Sequence record: PZ445554.1
Strand: one strand, 5' to 3'
Source: a phage
DNA: 64,000 nt
Shown: piece after piece, positions 224 to 5,589 of the stretch
How positions within the stretch are numbered: the stretch's first letter is position 1
Layout: every line of letters starts with the position of its first letter
Notes under the pieces: model-generated
Told to the model about the DNA's origin: nothing
The model's input: only the letters and a program-made list of their open reading frames with translations
Database searches by the model: none
Program-made: the position numbers and the translations under genes

Positions 224-1906
224 TTAAACCATTACAGTAAATCGACCAACTTTCTTCATTTGAAGATGCTGACCGTATTCTTGCGGGTCATGGTCTTTAT
301 GCGAAATTATAAAAACATTAGTGTTTTTCATTGAATTTATAATATTAGCTACACCTTTAATACCTTCGGCATCAAATGACCCATCAAACACTTCATCGAG
401 TATTAATGTACTAATACTAACACCAGATACAATAGAAGCAATATCACGCCAAGTAAATAAAAGAGCAATATCAATTCGCGCTTTTTCACCTTCACTAAAT
501 GAAGCATAACTAAAATCTTCGCGACCACGGGATTTAATTGTCTCATTAAATTCTTCATCTAATGTAAACACATAATCCGCTTCCATTATTTTAAGATAAT
601 GGTTAATCTGCTTATTAAATAATGGAATGTACTTTTTAATAATAGCACCTTTAATACCAGAATCTTTGAGCATATCAGTCAAAATTCCTCGGTGGTATTT
701 TTCCATTACTAAATTAGTTTTTGTCTTAACAATTTTATCAAGTTCTTCTTGAAGCAGTGCTATTTCATCAGCATGGTCAATAAACTCAGAAGATGCTTTT
801 TCTATAGCCGCTTTAACCTTTTTAGCTTTATCTACTGCTGCGATCAGAGATTGCTTTTTATTGCGAATATCATTTGCCAACGACTGCTGGGTTTTAATAT
901 TATCTCGGTATTCATCAACAAGAACTTTTAAATTATCACGGTGTGTTGAAAGCTGTTCAAACGAATGCGTACATTCAGAAACTTTATCTTTAATTTTAGA
1001 AACAACTTTATCACCGGAACTTAATTGTGACAAACAGGTTGGACATAATCCACCTTCGTGATACATATTAATGACTTTATTATACGAGTCAATTTTTGAT
1101 TTAATTAAAACTGCTTCTTGACCGATTTTATTAAATGCATCAGTCGGGTCTTCATCTAAAACAATATTAACTAATCTTTCATTAGCTTCTTCTATTTCAG
1201 ATTTTAGCGTTCTAGCTTCTTTTGCCAAATCATCATACATATTTTGTAGACGCGTAAGGTTGTCACCCGTTAATTTTTTCTGGCGTTCAACGTTATCATT
1301 ATATATTTTAATTTGTTGGATAATACTATCTTTTTTAACATCAAGCACTTGGTTTTGTGAATTTAATTCGCGTATTAGTGCTTTATTAAGCTTATCCATT
1401 TCAGCTAATGTTCCTACCTCGAGCAGGTCTTCCACAAGCTTTCTTCGCGCAGGGGTCGACAAACCCATGAAAGGGGTATACCCTGCTGTACCAAGGACAA
1501 CAATCTGCTTGAAACTGGCATATGACATTCCGATAAGCTGTTCAAATTCTGCTTGGAAATCTTTACTACTGGCAGATTCATTAAGACGTGTACCGTTAAC
1601 GGTGATTTCGAAAACGTTTGGTTTTTGTCCTCTTTTGATATAGTACTTTTTCTCATCATATTCCATCCACAGTTCAACTAAAAGTTCTTTCTTATTTGTG
1701 CTGTTTATTAATTGGCCTTTCTTTACATCACGAAATGGCTTGCCAAAAAGCCCAAATGTGATGGCTTCTAGCATAGTAGACTTACCACCGCCATTTCGTC
1801 CAGTAATAAGAGTTTTTTGAACCTTATCTAATTGAATGTCAATAGGATTTCCACCTACTGACATTATATTTTGATACCTAACTCGGTTTAGTTTAAAATT
1901 CTTCAC
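224..1906 (-). CDS. 46: recombination endonuclease subunit gp46 (Rad50/SbcC-like ATPase)
   Basis: 560 aa; Walker A GRNGGGKST near N-terminus, long central coiled-coil, CPTC zinc hook, C-terminal ABC signature/Walker B LILDEVFD; 4-nt overlap with gene 47. Confidence 0.93.
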   Translation of the reverse strand: MKNFKLNRVRYQNIMSVGGNPIDIQLDKVQKTLITGRNGGGKSTMLEAITFGLFGKPFRDVKKGQLINSTNKKELLVELWMEYDEKKYYIKRGQKPNVFEITVNGTRLNESASSKDFQAEFEQLIGMSYASFKQIVVLGTAGYTPFMGLSTPARRKLVEDLLEVGTLAEMDKLNKALIRELNSQNQVLDVKKDSIIQQIKIYNDNVERQKKLTGDNLTRLQNMYDDLAKEARTLKSEIEEANERLVNIVLDEDPTDAFNKIGQEAVLIKSKIDSYNKVINMYHEGGLCPTCLSQLSSGDKVVSKIKDKVSECTHSFEQLSTHRDNLKVLVDEYRDNIKTQQSLANDIRNKKQSLIAAVDKAKKVKAAIEKASSEFIDHADEIALLQEELDKIVKTKTNLVMEKYHRGILTDMLKDSGIKGAIIKKYIPLFNKQINHYLKIMEADYVFTLDEEFNETIKSRGREDFSYASFSEGEKARIDIALLFTWRDIASIVSGVSISTLILDEVFDGSFDAEGIKGVANIINSMKNTNVFIISHKDHDPQEYGQHLQMKKVGRFTVMV

Positions 1907-2118: not shown

Positions 2119-2353
2119 CCTTAATACAAGATACAGCCATATCTCGTAATGATTTAGGGGTGTCATTATCTAAAATGTTGAAGTTAAAAGATACAGCCCA
2201 GTCAGTGCAGACCGTAACCTTTTTAATACAATTATCTTCAACTTCTAGTGGTTCAAACCAGTATTCAATAATTTCTTTATGACCAATATCATCTTTTACT
2301 TCGCATTCAAAATGCTGACTCATCATAACATTTTTAAATTCATCAAAAGTCAT
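2090..2353 (-). CDS. hypothetical small protein (46.2-like position)
   Basis: 87-aa ORF; stop/start overlap with gene 47 (2350) typical of T4 coupling. Confidence 0.45.
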   Translation of the reverse strand: MTFDEFKNVMMSQHFECEVKDDIGHKEIIEYWFEPLEVEDNCIKKVTVCTDWAVSFNFNILDNDTPKSLRDMAVSCIKDAYCEVFDI

Positions 2354-3369
2354 TGTGTTGCCTCTACATATAGCTGATTTGCATATTGAATAAGTGCTTC
2401 ACGATCAGAATCAGTGATGTCTGGAATTGCATTAATATACTCTTCCATTAATGTCTGAAGCGATTGAACTTCAACTTCTTCACTGTCATCTGACTCGACA
2501 GAGTTATCAATCTTTGACACAACTCGTAATGAATGCACAACTTTTTCTAGTTCAGATTCGAATTTCGTCAGATTTTTGTCTACTTCAGTTACTATAACAC
2601 GTACTGATAGATTTGTAAAATCTTTATAGTCAATTTTTCCTTTAAATGGATAATGAATTCTACGATGCCAGGTAGTATTGTTTGGAATAAATTCCATTCG
2701 TTCTGTTTCTGTATCAAACATCCAGAACCCACGAGGGTCATTCTCGTCACCTGCTGTTAGTGTCCATGGTGTCCCAATATATCTGACGTTTGCAGCCTCA
2801 GAAATAGTATGGAAGTGACCAGACCACACTTCTTTATAAGTCTTAAGGAAATCAGGTTCAAGACCGTGAGATTTCATTCCTTTATAAAAATAAAATCCAT
2901 TCAGTTCCCAGTGACCAACACAAAAAGAAGCAGATGAAGTTTTGATGTGTTCAAGAATTTCACCAGTATTTTCTTCGCACATCCAAGGAATTAAATCAAT
3001 CAAACACCCGTCAAAATCTACTGTAGTAGGCTTATCATATACTTTAACATTAGGATATTTAGCCAAAAGCTCAGTAGAGGCATTTGGATGCATTACATTT
3101 TTGTAGTGGAGATCGTGATTTCCTACAATAGTATGTAATGTGATTCCAGCGTCATCAAGCATTTGAACTATTTCACGGGCAAACTCCATAGTTTTATGTG
3201 TGATTGCTTTTCGCACATCAAAAATATCACCATATTGAATCCATACAGTAATTCCATTTTTCTTAGAATATTCTATCGCTTGCTTAATTCCATCAATTTG
3301 AATACCGCGAATCCACTCATCATCAGCTTTAACGCCTAAATGCCAATCACCCAAGTTTAGTATTTTCAT
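2350..3369 (-). CDS. 47: recombination nuclease subunit gp47 (Mre11/SbcD-like phosphoesterase)
   Basis: 339 aa; N-terminal LGDWHLG and GNHD calcineurin-like phosphoesterase motifs; adjacent to gene 46 as in T4. Confidence 0.93.
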   Translation of the reverse strand: MKILNLGDWHLGVKADDEWIRGIQIDGIKQAIEYSKKNGITVWIQYGDIFDVRKAITHKTMEFAREIVQMLDDAGITLHTIVGNHDLHYKNVMHPNASTELLAKYPNVKVYDKPTTVDFDGCLIDLIPWMCEENTGEILEHIKTSSASFCVGHWELNGFYFYKGMKSHGLEPDFLKTYKEVWSGHFHTISEAANVRYIGTPWTLTAGDENDPRGFWMFDTETERMEFIPNNTTWHRRIHYPFKGKIDYKDFTNLSVRVIVTEVDKNLTKFESELEKVVHSLRVVSKIDNSVESDDSEEVEVQSLQTLMEEYINAIPDITDSDREALIQYANQLYVEATQ

Positions 3370-3970
3370 GGTGTCTTTTCCATCCTAATTTAGCTGCTTT
3401 TGAAACCAGTTCTTTAATTTTTCCTTTTGTCCATTCAGGACCAGGAGGTTCATGACATAACATTTGCTTAACTCCGTTATTATACCATTTTTTACCTTTA
3501 TTATGTGATGAAGCTTTAAATTTATTTGACCTTCCTTTTGCATAACCTTCTGGAATATAAGGCAAAAAGGCAGATTTTCCTGTTAATGGATCATGTGAAT
3601 GTATATTTCCTTTACAATTATGAGAACCATATAATGGATGATTTTGTCCTTTATTATCTCTTCCAAATGAACCTTTTGGAGCAGCATATGACATATTAAA
3701 GAATAATGGATTTTTAACTGCATCATGCAATCGTTGATAATATAACTCGCATTTAATAGCTTCTTCACGCGTATCAAATTCAGCTAAAATGCATGAATCA
3801 AATAAGTGAGGATTATCTGAAAGCTCTTTATTATAAATTTTCTTATACTTTTTAGATAAAACTGAACCATGATATCCAGCTAAATGCCTATCTAAAGACG
3901 TAGATCCAATATAAAAAGGAGGAAGTTTATCTCCACTATATATTGTTAAATAAGTTATATATTTTTTCAT
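3347..3970 (-). CDS. GIY-YIG family homing endonuclease (Seg-like)
   Basis: 207 aa; N-terminus YLTIYSGDKLPPFYIGST..R..H...ILAEFDTREEA..E fits GIY-(8-11)-YIG with conserved Arg/Glu; basic Gly/Lys-rich C-terminus typical of DNA-binding linker; overlaps gene 47 start by 23 nt. Confidence 0.7.
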   Translation of the reverse strand: MKKYITYLTIYSGDKLPPFYIGSTSLDRHLAGYHGSVLSKKYKKIYNKELSDNPHLFDSCILAEFDTREEAIKCELYYQRLHDAVKNPLFFNMSYAAPKGSFGRDNKGQNHPLYGSHNCKGNIHSHDPLTGKSAFLPYIPEGYAKGRSNKFKASSHNKGKKWYNNGVKQMLCHEPPGPEWTKGKIKELVSKAAKLGWKRHHENTKLG

Positions 3971-4107
3971 ATATCAAGAACCGTCATTGAAATGCAAAAT
4001 AAAATTATTGAAATAAATCCATCTGGAGTGCTAAAGAACCCAATCCAACATGCTCTAGTGAATAGATAAAATGCAAGAAAAAGTATCACATATCCAAGAA
4101 ATATCAT
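3967..4107 (-). CDS. putative small hydrophobic peptide (46 aa)
   Basis: Hand-translated MIFLGYVILFLAFYLFTRACWIGFF...; its TGA overlaps ATG of the GIY-YIG ORF (ATGA); below ORF-track size cut-off. Confidence 0.25.
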   Translation of the reverse strand: MIFLGYVILFLAFYLFTRACWIGFFSTPDGFISIILFCISMTVLDI

Positions 4108-4130
4108 TATATCAAACTCCGTATAAAGCT

Positions 4131-4148
4131 AAAGGGCCGAAGCCCTTT
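4131..4148 (-). terminator. rho-independent terminator after a-gt
   Basis: AAAGGGC-TTCG-GCCCTTT hairpin (minus strand) at the a-gt stop, followed by U-rich tract. Confidence 0.5.
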
Positions 4149-5349
4149 ATTTTGTAATAATGTCAAACTGTTCTTTAAAGCAGAAGCTTGAATCTTGATG
4201 CTGATACAAAAATTCATATGCTTTTTCTCGCTCACGGTCATAAAGAGCTCGGTCAGATGACAGTTCTTTAATACGTTCAAATGTTGATTCCATGTCATTT
4301 TCATCAAACCAAATGATACCGCTATCATGCGAGGTCAAAGGAGTATTATCAACACGGAATTTTAAATTTTCGCCAGTAGATTTCCAAAATACCGGAATTG
4401 TTCCACATGCACCAAGCTCGAGATGAGTATATTCTAAAGAACGTTGTAGATATTTTTTATCCAACTTACTCAACTGATAACCAAAACCGGATTTACTCAT
4501 GCGTTCAAGCATTTCGCTATTTACATAACGGTCAAGAATTTGCGTTGGCAAATTAGGAGCAATTTTAATTTGGTCTACTTGATGAAGACGATAATACTCG
4601 TATGGAATTCCTTTTTCTTTAATAGGAATGAACGCTGGAGAACGTTCCAGACCTTCCATAATAGTACTTAGTCCTGCAGGTTTAAGATGTTTTTCGTGAA
4701 AATCAAACATCTGATAAAAACCTTTCCATGTAGTCGTACGACCAATCCAACGATTGATATTCATGTTAATTTCAGAAACATCTTTCCAGTAGGTTGACCG
4801 AACCTTCGCAATATCCATAGGAGGCTGAAAGTTATATACTGTCGGCGCTTCTTCAATATCATCAAATAAAGAAACTGTTTCAGGATACCACTCTTTCATC
4901 AGAACTTTATTAAAATCACCATTATCAGAATGACTAAAAATAACATCAGCTCGACGAACAGTTTCTTCTAATCCCAAATTTCGGCGCAAAGAAAGAGAAG
5001 AGTGGTCATGTTGATAAACTACAACACGAACCGAAGGTTTAATGTTATCAATAATTTTTTTATAGTTATTAATAGTGTCTTCTTCAACTGAAGTAGCAGG
5101 AACTGAATTGATAATTAGAATATCACAATCATTTACCAGCTTAAGTGTTTTATCGTATTCTTTTGCCAATAAAACCGGAATTGAAAATGATTTATAATCA
5201 TGTGCACAGTTACGAGTAAATGATTTATCTTTAGCATAAACCAAAGTTACTTCATGACCATTTTTAATAAACCAATCACGTTGCTCAAGAGAAAATTTAG
5301 TTACACCACAACCTTCAAGACCCCGAGCCATAAAAATACATACTTTCAT
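4147..5349 (-). CDS. a-gt: DNA alpha-glucosyltransferase (hydroxymethylcytosine glucosylation)
   Basis: 400 aa; begins MKVCIFMARGLEGCGVTKFSLEQRDWFIKNGHEVTLVYAKDKSF, recognised as the T4 alpha-gt sequence; same length as T4 enzyme. Confidence 0.95.
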   Translation of the reverse strand: MKVCIFMARGLEGCGVTKFSLEQRDWFIKNGHEVTLVYAKDKSFTRNCAHDYKSFSIPVLLAKEYDKTLKLVNDCDILIINSVPATSVEEDTINNYKKIIDNIKPSVRVVVYQHDHSSLSLRRNLGLEETVRRADVIFSHSDNGDFNKVLMKEWYPETVSLFDDIEEAPTVYNFQPPMDIAKVRSTYWKDVSEINMNINRWIGRTTTWKGFYQMFDFHEKHLKPAGLSTIMEGLERSPAFIPIKEKGIPYEYYRLHQVDQIKIAPNLPTQILDRYVNSEMLERMSKSGFGYQLSKLDKKYLQRSLEYTHLELGACGTIPVFWKSTGENLKFRVDNTPLTSHDSGIIWFDENDMESTFERIKELSSDRALYDREREKAYEFLYQHQDSSFCFKEQFDIITK

Positions 5350-5400
5350 TTAATATCCTCTTTGTTTTGGTTTATTTTACCAAAAATTTATAAAGCAATA

Positions 5401-5418
5401 TAGGAGCCGAAGCTCCTA
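5401..5418 (-). terminator. rho-independent terminator
   Basis: TAGGAGC-TTCG-GCTCCTA hairpin overlapping stop of the upstream small ORF, followed by T-rich run on minus strand. Confidence 0.4.
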
Positions 5419-5589
5419 TCCACATAATACGCCATACAGAGGCTCGTTAGAACTTTTAAATTTTATGCGCTTATATGTTATAGTTCCTTCTGCTTTAGCT
5501 TTATCATGAGACTCTTTAAAGCGTCTCATCATTTCCTCTTTAGAGGAACGAATTTTATTATAATCTATTTCAGAAGTCTGGGTGTTCAT
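5416..5589 (-). CDS. putative small protein (57 aa)
   Basis: Hand-translated MNTQTSEIDYNKIRSSKEEMMRRFKESHDKAKAEG...; start 3 nt after stop of upstream ORF; not in ORF track (<60 aa). Confidence 0.3.
   Translation of the reverse strand: MNTQTSEIDYNKIRSSKEEMMRRFKESHDKAKAEGTITYKRIKFKSSNEPLYGVLCG

Follow-up and report, generated by a model that had tools for sequence, protein, structure and literature searches.

The closest described systems for the gene considered here are the free-standing Seg endonucleases of phage T4. SegF and SegG are encoded by promoter-less GIY-YIG cassettes that sit beside an essential gene of DNA metabolism, with segF overlapping gene 56 by 11 nucleotides (nt); both occur patchily among T-even phages and are expected to cause localised marker exclusion (PMC2988022). 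For SegF and SegG, which cause marker exclusion of genes 56 and 32, cleavage sites and co-conversion tracts are experimentally known. SegE, encoded between inh and uvsW, is free-standing as well, lies directly upstream of its conserved target gene uvsW and has an upstream promoter of its own (PMC2988022). The review's table of T4 homing endonucleases lists none between a-gt and gene 47 (PMC2988022). It is at this place, in a 64,000-nt stretch of phage DNA (record PZ445554.1; the whole stretch is called the window), that an open reading frame (ORF) of 207 amino acids (aa) is found (3347..3970; like every gene of the window located below, on the minus strand), intact in the window according to both the ORF list and the sequence. 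Based on the evidence collected here, the ORF very probably represents an intact Seg-type homing endonuclease gene, a promoter-less cassette between genes 47.1 and 47 that would home into T4-type DNA near the start of gene 47.

The encoded protein is a GIY-YIG enzyme of the Seg type, with a SegE-like C-terminal region that is putatively DNA-binding. Alignment by hhalign of the family profile with a profile of T4 SegA-G gave a match at 97.5% probability (E 5e-12) over 90 columns of the catalytic domain, and the family hidden Markov model (HMM), run against the T4 Seg proteins, retrieved SegE over its full length at 41.8 bits, followed by SegG and SegC. The T4 Seg profile picked the 207-aa ORF alone among the 238 ORFs of the window (E 2e-8), and neither this nor the family profile revealed another Seg-type ORF in the whole 64 kilobases (kb). 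Among the PHROGs, the protein matches phrog_10820 (E 1e-93; labelled 'HNH endonuclease') and phrog_314 (E 3e-18; 'homing endonuclease'). A large protein database yielded 169 homologues, many of which share the N-terminal ~115 residues only and then continue into NUMOD3 (PF07460); one homologue sharing the N-terminal domain also carries the Pfam GIY-YIG family PF01541.

The catalytic GIY-YIG domain (aa 1-100; 3671..3970) comprises T9-I-Y11, Y20-I-G22, R28, Y33, E75 and N92. A preliminary description of this DNA had read the N-terminus as TIY, eight residues and YIGST with Arg and Glu downstream, and the residues are indeed in place as T9-I10-Y11 and Y20-I21-G22-S23-T24, with R28, R68 and E75 following. 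Across 42 homologues, Y7, Y11, G13, Y20-I-G-S23, Y33, G35, S39, K40, R68, A71, E75 and N92 are invariant or nearly so. The bipartite GIY…YIG motif is represented by Y11, Y20, I21 and G22 in 41 of the 41 homologues that have a residue there; E75 and N92, present in all 42, correspond to the E and N that never vary in the T4 Seg proteins (E75 and N90 in I-TevI). In the AlphaFold model (mean predicted local distance difference test score, pLDDT, of 83, and >93 through the first 90 residues) the GIY and YIG strands are placed at residues 4-11 and 19-25 with pLDDT >95, and the predicted structure has the GIY-YIG alpha/beta fold. Foldseek returned the I-TevI catalytic domain as the best match of the model in the PDB (probability 0.99), then Slx1 and UvrC, with PD-T4-3 and Eco29kI also among the top matches.

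The C-terminal region (3365..3661) consists of a degenerate NUMOD3-like linker (aa 104-118), two beta-hairpin modules (…HSHDPLTGKSAFLPYIPEGYAKGR… and …KWYNNGVKQMLCHEPPGPEWTKGK…) and a terminal helix. Its putative role in DNA binding is suggested by the alignment with SegE, by the AlphaFold model and by a profile search of the PDB, in which the only match, a weak one, was the DNA-binding domain of I-TevI (1I3J, E 0.085). In the family HMM alignment the two modules are matched with …CYTNGTKNIFIKPGELVPEGFVKGM… and …FWVNNGAINKLIQPDGIIPDGFIKGR… of SegE. In the model, residues 123-136 and 161-172 form hairpins and residues 186-202 a helix, with a pLDDT of ~81-93 in the SegE-like hairpin modules. Of the profile search proposed earlier for GIY-YIG and NUMOD, the first half gave a signal, backed by hhalign and the SegE match; the second did not, there being no NUMOD Pfam domain in the protein at E up to 1. 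Unlike in I-TevI, neither a zinc finger nor a helix-turn-helix domain was detected. In the conserved P-E-G-Y-V-K-G-R module, a V144A exchange (3538..3540) is private to the window copy, Val being present in the six other compared copies.

The same protein, at 99% identity, is found in dozens of phage records, entered in RefSeq as 'HNH endonuclease' and in BASEL as 'putative homing endonuclease'; most records that hold the gene label it 'HNH endonuclease' or 'hypothetical protein'. The Pfam scan returned no HNH family at E up to 1, and no HNH enzyme is among the top fold-search matches of the AlphaFold model. Because both fold and motifs are GIY-YIG, the 'HNH' label is rejected as wrong, and the annotation should read Seg-type GIY-YIG homing endonuclease.

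The gene is tightly built into its surroundings. Along the minus strand the order is a-gt, a UUCG hairpin, 47.1, the 207-aa ORF, gene 47, two small ORFs and gene 46. Gene 47 (2350..3369), with 339 aa as in T4, encodes the Mre11/SbcD-like recombination nuclease subunit (Pfam Metallophos, T4 annotation). Its codons 1-8 overlap the 3' end of the endonuclease gene (…HENTKLG*) by 23 nt (3347..3369), and at the other end the ATGA at 3967..3970 provides bases common to the TGA stop of 47.1 and the ATG of the 207-aa ORF; the two overlaps had been pointed out before, and their positions agree with those given here. The 46-aa ORF upstream (3967..4107), which the preliminary description had taken for an unlisted hydrophobic ORF coupled to the endonuclease gene, is real and hydrophobic, but it is not new: the product is 100% identical to T4 gp47.1, a 'predicted membrane protein' (NP_813808), and matches phrog_6693. 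Nor is it a partner of the endonuclease, being a conserved resident T4 gene that is kept in non-carriers. Gene 47.1 abuts gene 47 in T4, T2, RB14, RB32, PP01, NR1, PYps10T and six IMG/VR contigs, and because it is found directly against gene 47 in all of the non-carriers, we regard it as a neighbour; a place for it in the mobile element is rejected, since genomes without the endonuclease have it too, in identical form. In T4 the 47.1 stop overlaps the ATG of gene 47 by the same ATGA that in the window joins it to the endonuclease ATG instead. The insertion has taken over the coupling that 47.1 has with gene 47 in T4.

Relative to T4, identity extends up to …GATATATGAAAA and resumes at ATGAAAAT… of gene 47, with ~601 extra bases in between. 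Alignments with T4 and 12 other non-carriers place the extra segment at 3370..3970, and it is a clean insertion between 47.1 and 47 in comparison with T4, T2, RB14, RB32, PP01 and others. The alignment of this junction had been proposed earlier as a check; it shows the clean insertion (T4, T2, RB14, RB32), and the gene is not universal in close relatives. A 7-bp (base pair) direct repeat, ATGAAAA, flanks the insertion (3964..3970 and 3363..3369); the exact ends are therefore ambiguous by 7 bp. No T4 late-promoter TATAAATA is present near the endonuclease gene, and a sigma-70 scan there gave nothing above chance. With no promoter signal above chance, the gene is treated as promoter-less, and it fits the pattern of the promoter-less Seg cassettes described in T4 (PMC2988022). 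RNA folding of the region around the 47.1/endonuclease start was no more stable than shuffled sequence (z = 0.06); a small AU hairpin over the endonuclease start codon is not claimed as regulation, its stability equalling that of shuffled sequence.

The distribution is that of a free-standing gene placed between conserved genes in some relatives only. The gene was found in 69 records; identity to the window copy reaches 99% or more for 51 of the copies and lies at 95-99% for the other 18. The carrier-type junction of these 69 compares with an uninterrupted T4-type junction in ~462 records of the phage collection, both counts being inflated by GenBank/RefSeq duplicates. About one in eight (~13%) of the ~530 Tequatrovirus-type GenBank records are thus carriers, among them the BASEL phages TadeuszReichstein, AndreasVesalius and PaulHMueller; T4 is not one of them. 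The earlier expectation that such a Seg-like gene varies among relatives is confirmed by its absence from T4, T2, RB14, RB32, PP01 and most other relatives, and occurrence is patchy also in the other genera sampled. A scan of IMG/VR by way of gp47 gave 29 loci, none of them a close carrier of the endonuclease gene.

Mobility was approached by aligning 8 carriers and 13 non-carriers (21 genomes) over 3.5 kb. In a-gt and gene 47, carriers are as diverse as non-carriers, and the flanking a-gt/gene 47 haplotypes are mosaic and common to both groups: the 5' haplotype of gene 47 in the window matches that of the non-carrier PYps10T, and that of TadeuszReichstein resembles T4 and L003 (another genome compared). 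The endonuclease gene itself falls into two tight allele clades ~4% apart, a within-gene diversity taken from direct pairwise comparison, as runs of N in KNP1 and an indel in ESh34 distort the 21-genome values. The clades differ by ~18 synonymous and ~6 non-synonymous changes, giving a ratio of non-synonymous to synonymous rates (dN/dS) of 0.07-0.09. A dN/dS of ~0.08 implies selection on the protein and so argues for a functional product. One copy, that of GEP001 (L037 1902..2450), ends prematurely with a stop at codon 183 and is entered as a shortened coding sequence; it provides an example of decay. The patchy occurrence on mosaic backgrounds, together with the near-identity of the copies, is compatible with preferential inheritance.

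The link to gene 47 extends beyond Tequatrovirus. Orthologues of 60-70% identity lie directly upstream of gene 47 and overlap its start in other genera. They are found in Dhakavirus (NC-G, IME08 and the QL01 contig), with a-gt.2 as the upstream neighbour and no a-gt or 47.1 there, and in the Jiaodavirus KP185, with a-gt upstream; the Klebsiella phages KPV15 (Jiaodavirus) and HMGUkp2 (unclassified) also carry an orthologue at the gene 47 start. The overlap with gene 47 is 14 nt in NC-G and 17 nt in KP185, in both of which the two genes are annotated, and the conserved C-terminal '…(H/N)-E-N…' of the orthologues is gene 47 ATGAAAAT read in another frame. In every orthologue examined, from three genera, gene 47 is the downstream neighbour, and the upstream neighbour is a-gt.2, a-gt or 47.1. 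Given that the upstream neighbours vary, what stays constant in the family is the gene 47 start, and on this comparative ground gene 47 is the presumed target gene.

A more specific indication comes from a cluster of silent substitutions in gene 47 codons 3-6 (3352..3361), which read ATA CTA AAC TTG in the window and other carriers and ATT TTA AAT TTA in T4-type genomes. Positions 3361, 3355 and 3352, all silent, are the only columns of the 3.5-kb alignment with a fixed difference between the 8 carriers and the 13 non-carriers; position 3360 also separates the two groups, RB14 excepted. In the larger record set, the carrier-type codons are present in 68 of the 69 carrier records (P922 has three of the four), and the T4-type codons are found in about 98% of the uninterrupted junctions. 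The four changes lie within 10 bp, between flanks that are identical in all 21 genomes (27 bp downstream and most of 47.1 upstream), and this density is far above the local divergence of about 1%. The cluster is placed just upstream of the sequence for the GDWH metal-binding motif, among the most conserved parts of gene 47. Conserved sequence of this kind is what homing endonucleases typically recognise. Collectively, these observations point, with moderate strength, to a candidate target of ~30 bp at the T4-type 47.1/47 junction, at the start of gene 47, and the changes in codons 3-6 are a candidate for target-site immunity, or else a hitch-hiking remnant of donor sequence.

A comparable pattern is found in Dhakavirus, in which the wobble bases of codons 3-5 separate three carriers (ATT CTT AAT; L052, L053 and L020) from four JS98-like non-carriers (ATA TTA AAC; L016, L018, L019 and L031), the next 24 nt being identical; the comparison is weakened in that the JS98-like non-carriers may be of another genus. 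The direction of the wobble changes is opposite to that in Tequatrovirus. This reversal hints at allele-specific pairs of enzyme and target.

The proposed mechanism is that of intronless homing. The cassette would probably be co-transcribed with 47.1 and 47, and its translation coupled to that of 47.1 via the ATGA overlap; its own stop is situated 20 nt into gene 47. In a cell infected by both a carrier and a T4-type phage, the enzyme would cleave the DNA of the latter at the gene 47 start or close to it, and recombinational repair from the carrier genome would then copy the endonuclease gene with short flanks into the broken genome. Genetically, the outcome would be seen as localised marker exclusion around genes 47 and a-gt. 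The carrier copy would be protected by the insertion itself, along with the silent changes in codons 3-6 of gene 47.

Several observations weigh against parts of this proposal and are best considered together with the alternatives. Regarding the family, PF01541 scores 20.6 bits against a gathering score of 22.6 (E 5.8e-4), a sub-threshold value that we ascribe, given the other family evidence, to a divergent subfamily; the NCBIfam search gave no meaningful match for the 207-aa protein, and the single-sequence search of the PDB returned chance matches to ribosomal proteins only. The position of I-TevI R27, occupied by R28 in the window protein, is K in 26, R in 9 and another residue in 7 of the 42 homologues; T4 SegA-E have no Arg at this position, and R68, found in 40 of the 42, is at a different one. 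The literature search, moreover, gave no paper that names or tests an endonuclease at the 47.1/47 locus. The low Pfam score might be read in favour of an inactive relic, kept only because its deletion would disturb the translation of the essential gene 47 that starts inside the ORF. Such a relic might also account for the private exchange in the EGYVKGR module of the window copy, and gene 47, which has no strong Shine-Dalgarno sequence here or in T4, does seem dependent on coupling to an upstream ORF. The relic is nonetheless very unlikely, considering that the residues of the catalytic core are all intact and conserved across the family, that the low dN/dS over the whole protein reflects selection on the protein and not merely on an open frame, and that near-identical copies on diverse backgrounds indicate recent spread; precise loss, furthermore, seems possible, as empty sites with carrier-type codons exist. 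The same strong purifying selection, together with the position kept in several genera, could suit a gene that is mainly a weapon or helper of the phage, cutting co-infecting competitors or promoting local recombination and amplification, with homing as a side effect. Two recent papers, on SegB-driven amplification of anti-defence loci (PMC13096335) and on an intron endonuclease in interference competition (PMC11620839), report such roles for phage homing endonucleases. We consider a role of this kind unlikely here: carriers are a small minority of the close relatives, nothing in the sequence speaks for a host-directed role, and broken copies (GEP001) and apparently 'emptied' sites exist, as predicted by the gain, decay and loss cycle of a selfish element.

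Regarding the target, the alternative is that a real Seg-type endonuclease is at work, with its true cleavage site further into gene 47, or in a-gt or 47.1, and that the codon 3-6 cluster is a leftover of donor gene 47, 9-18 bp from the insertion, having no role in immunity. This is a tentative but real possibility. The whole cluster is within 18 bp of the insertion, so close that physical linkage alone could keep the donor sequence, and with the next informative marker 27 bp beyond it, recombination inside the cluster would rarely be visible. Carrier-type codons also occur in nine non-carrier genomes (SHFML-26, BCPEco_001 and others), and the allele of RB14, with one of these changes, is intermediate. 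ERS-1 (PP337211; L048 330..970) is the sole apparent exception to the linkage, pairing the endonuclease gene with T4-type codons. Cleavage hundreds of bp away from the enzyme's gene is common among the known Seg enzymes (PMC2988022), and the real target could therefore lie elsewhere in gene 47 or a-gt. On the other side of the balance are the four changes within 10 bp of a stretch otherwise identical in 21 genomes, the similar wobble-only cluster (codons 3-5) in the Dhakavirus comparison, and the position at the gene 47 start that is kept in three genera whatever lies upstream. The exceptions themselves allow more than one explanation. ERS-1 is an unverified record whose endonuclease copy has several homopolymer indels: the copy may be broken, the assembly may be a chimera, or the exception may be genuine. 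The empty carrier-type sites, at which 47.1 abuts gene 47 (SHFML-26, L050 ~1531..1549; BCPEco_001, L051 ~1500..1518), may have arisen by precise loss between the ATGAAAA repeats, or may be resistant alleles that existed beforehand; the nearest-neighbour identities of these two genomes are mixed, RB14-like in gene 47 and carrier-like in a-gt.

Homing near the gene 47 start, the reading we prefer, can be extended further. In three or more Straboviridae genera, a lineage of Seg enzymes might be bound to the opening codons of the Mre11-like gene 47, a generalisation that is rather unlikely to hold as it stands. On this reading, the genome of each orthologue would be set apart from that of its presumed prey by the same three or four wobble bases, in opposite sense in Tequatrovirus and Dhakavirus, as co-evolving pairs of enzyme and target allele might be. 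The endonuclease may be hard to lose in such a lineage, the start codon of gene 47 being inside its frame and the translation of gp47 dependent on it. The double-strand breaks that homing requires are resected by the gp46/gp47 nuclease.

The region around the cassette shows other variable features. The gene a-gt (4147..5349; Pfam AGT, E 1.8e-237) is followed directly 3' of its stop by a stable AAAGGGCTTCGGCCCTTT hairpin with a GC-rich stem and a UUCG loop (4130..4149, assigned to neither strand); it is terminator-like on both strands and delimits the 47.1-seg-47 block on its upstream side, and the record of phage GiZh and several related ones annotate it as a terminator. Upstream of a-gt, the window (4147..5589) is without mobB and continues into an a-gt.2-like ORF of 57 aa, as in RB14, T2 and RB32; in T4, the HNH gene mobB stands between a-gt and a-gt.2 (compare L002 2486..3280). 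With no mobB in the window and no 207-aa gene in T4, the two phages have different homing-endonuclease genes next to a-gt, one on each side of it. Another variable slot for an endonuclease exists ~1.5 kb downstream of the 207-aa gene. There, T2 (L040 1..386) and PP01 (L042 1..386) have an ORF of 615-855 nt right after 46.1, annotated 'homing endonuclease' in two records and also present in SHFML-26 (L050 2995..3071) and BCPEco_001 (L051 2964..3040); the window and T4 go straight into gene 46.

Lastly, the study has consequences for genetics and for annotation. When carriers are crossed with T4 or T2, localised marker exclusion is predicted to appear in a new region (a-gt, 47, 46), and it would help explain the mosaic haplotypes around gene 47. 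Resistant and sensitive target alleles would differ by three silent bases, making the candidate target narrow and easily testable. The understanding of homing endonucleases is unchanged by what is one more member with an unusually well-defined candidate target: variable free-standing Seg genes are expected in T-even phages, and what is added here is the corrected annotation, the association with gene 47 across genera and the candidate target. The element is of an ordinary kind, and the gene comes without an earlier name, target or experiment in the records and papers found.

How the gene compares with the known systems can be summarised as follows. T4 SegE is its best match in T4, over the full length and of nearly the same size (205 vs 207 aa), with the same catalytic motifs (YIG, G-Y-x-G-S, hallmark G-Y-(M/H)-G-S, E and N) and with two C-terminal modules '(W/Y)-x-N-G … P-(E/D)-G-(F/W/Y)-x-K-G' in both proteins; the upstream placement of segE relative to uvsW has its counterpart in that of the 207-aa gene relative to gene 47. 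The two differ in that identity is about 27%, the locus is another one, hence presumably also the target, and the 207-aa gene, itself absent from T4, looks promoter-less and translationally coupled on both sides. In its cassette organisation the gene resembles segF and segG, to which the sequence relationship is weaker (SegG 20 bits, SegF not significant). To I-TevI of the T4 td intron it is connected by its linker, which weakly resembles the NUMOD3-like segment in the DNA-binding domain of I-TevI, with ~17-21% identity in structural alignments and a location outside any intron as the differences. The closest characterised relative of the endonuclease is therefore T4 SegE, its functional models are SegF and SegG, and its closest solved structure is that of I-TevI.

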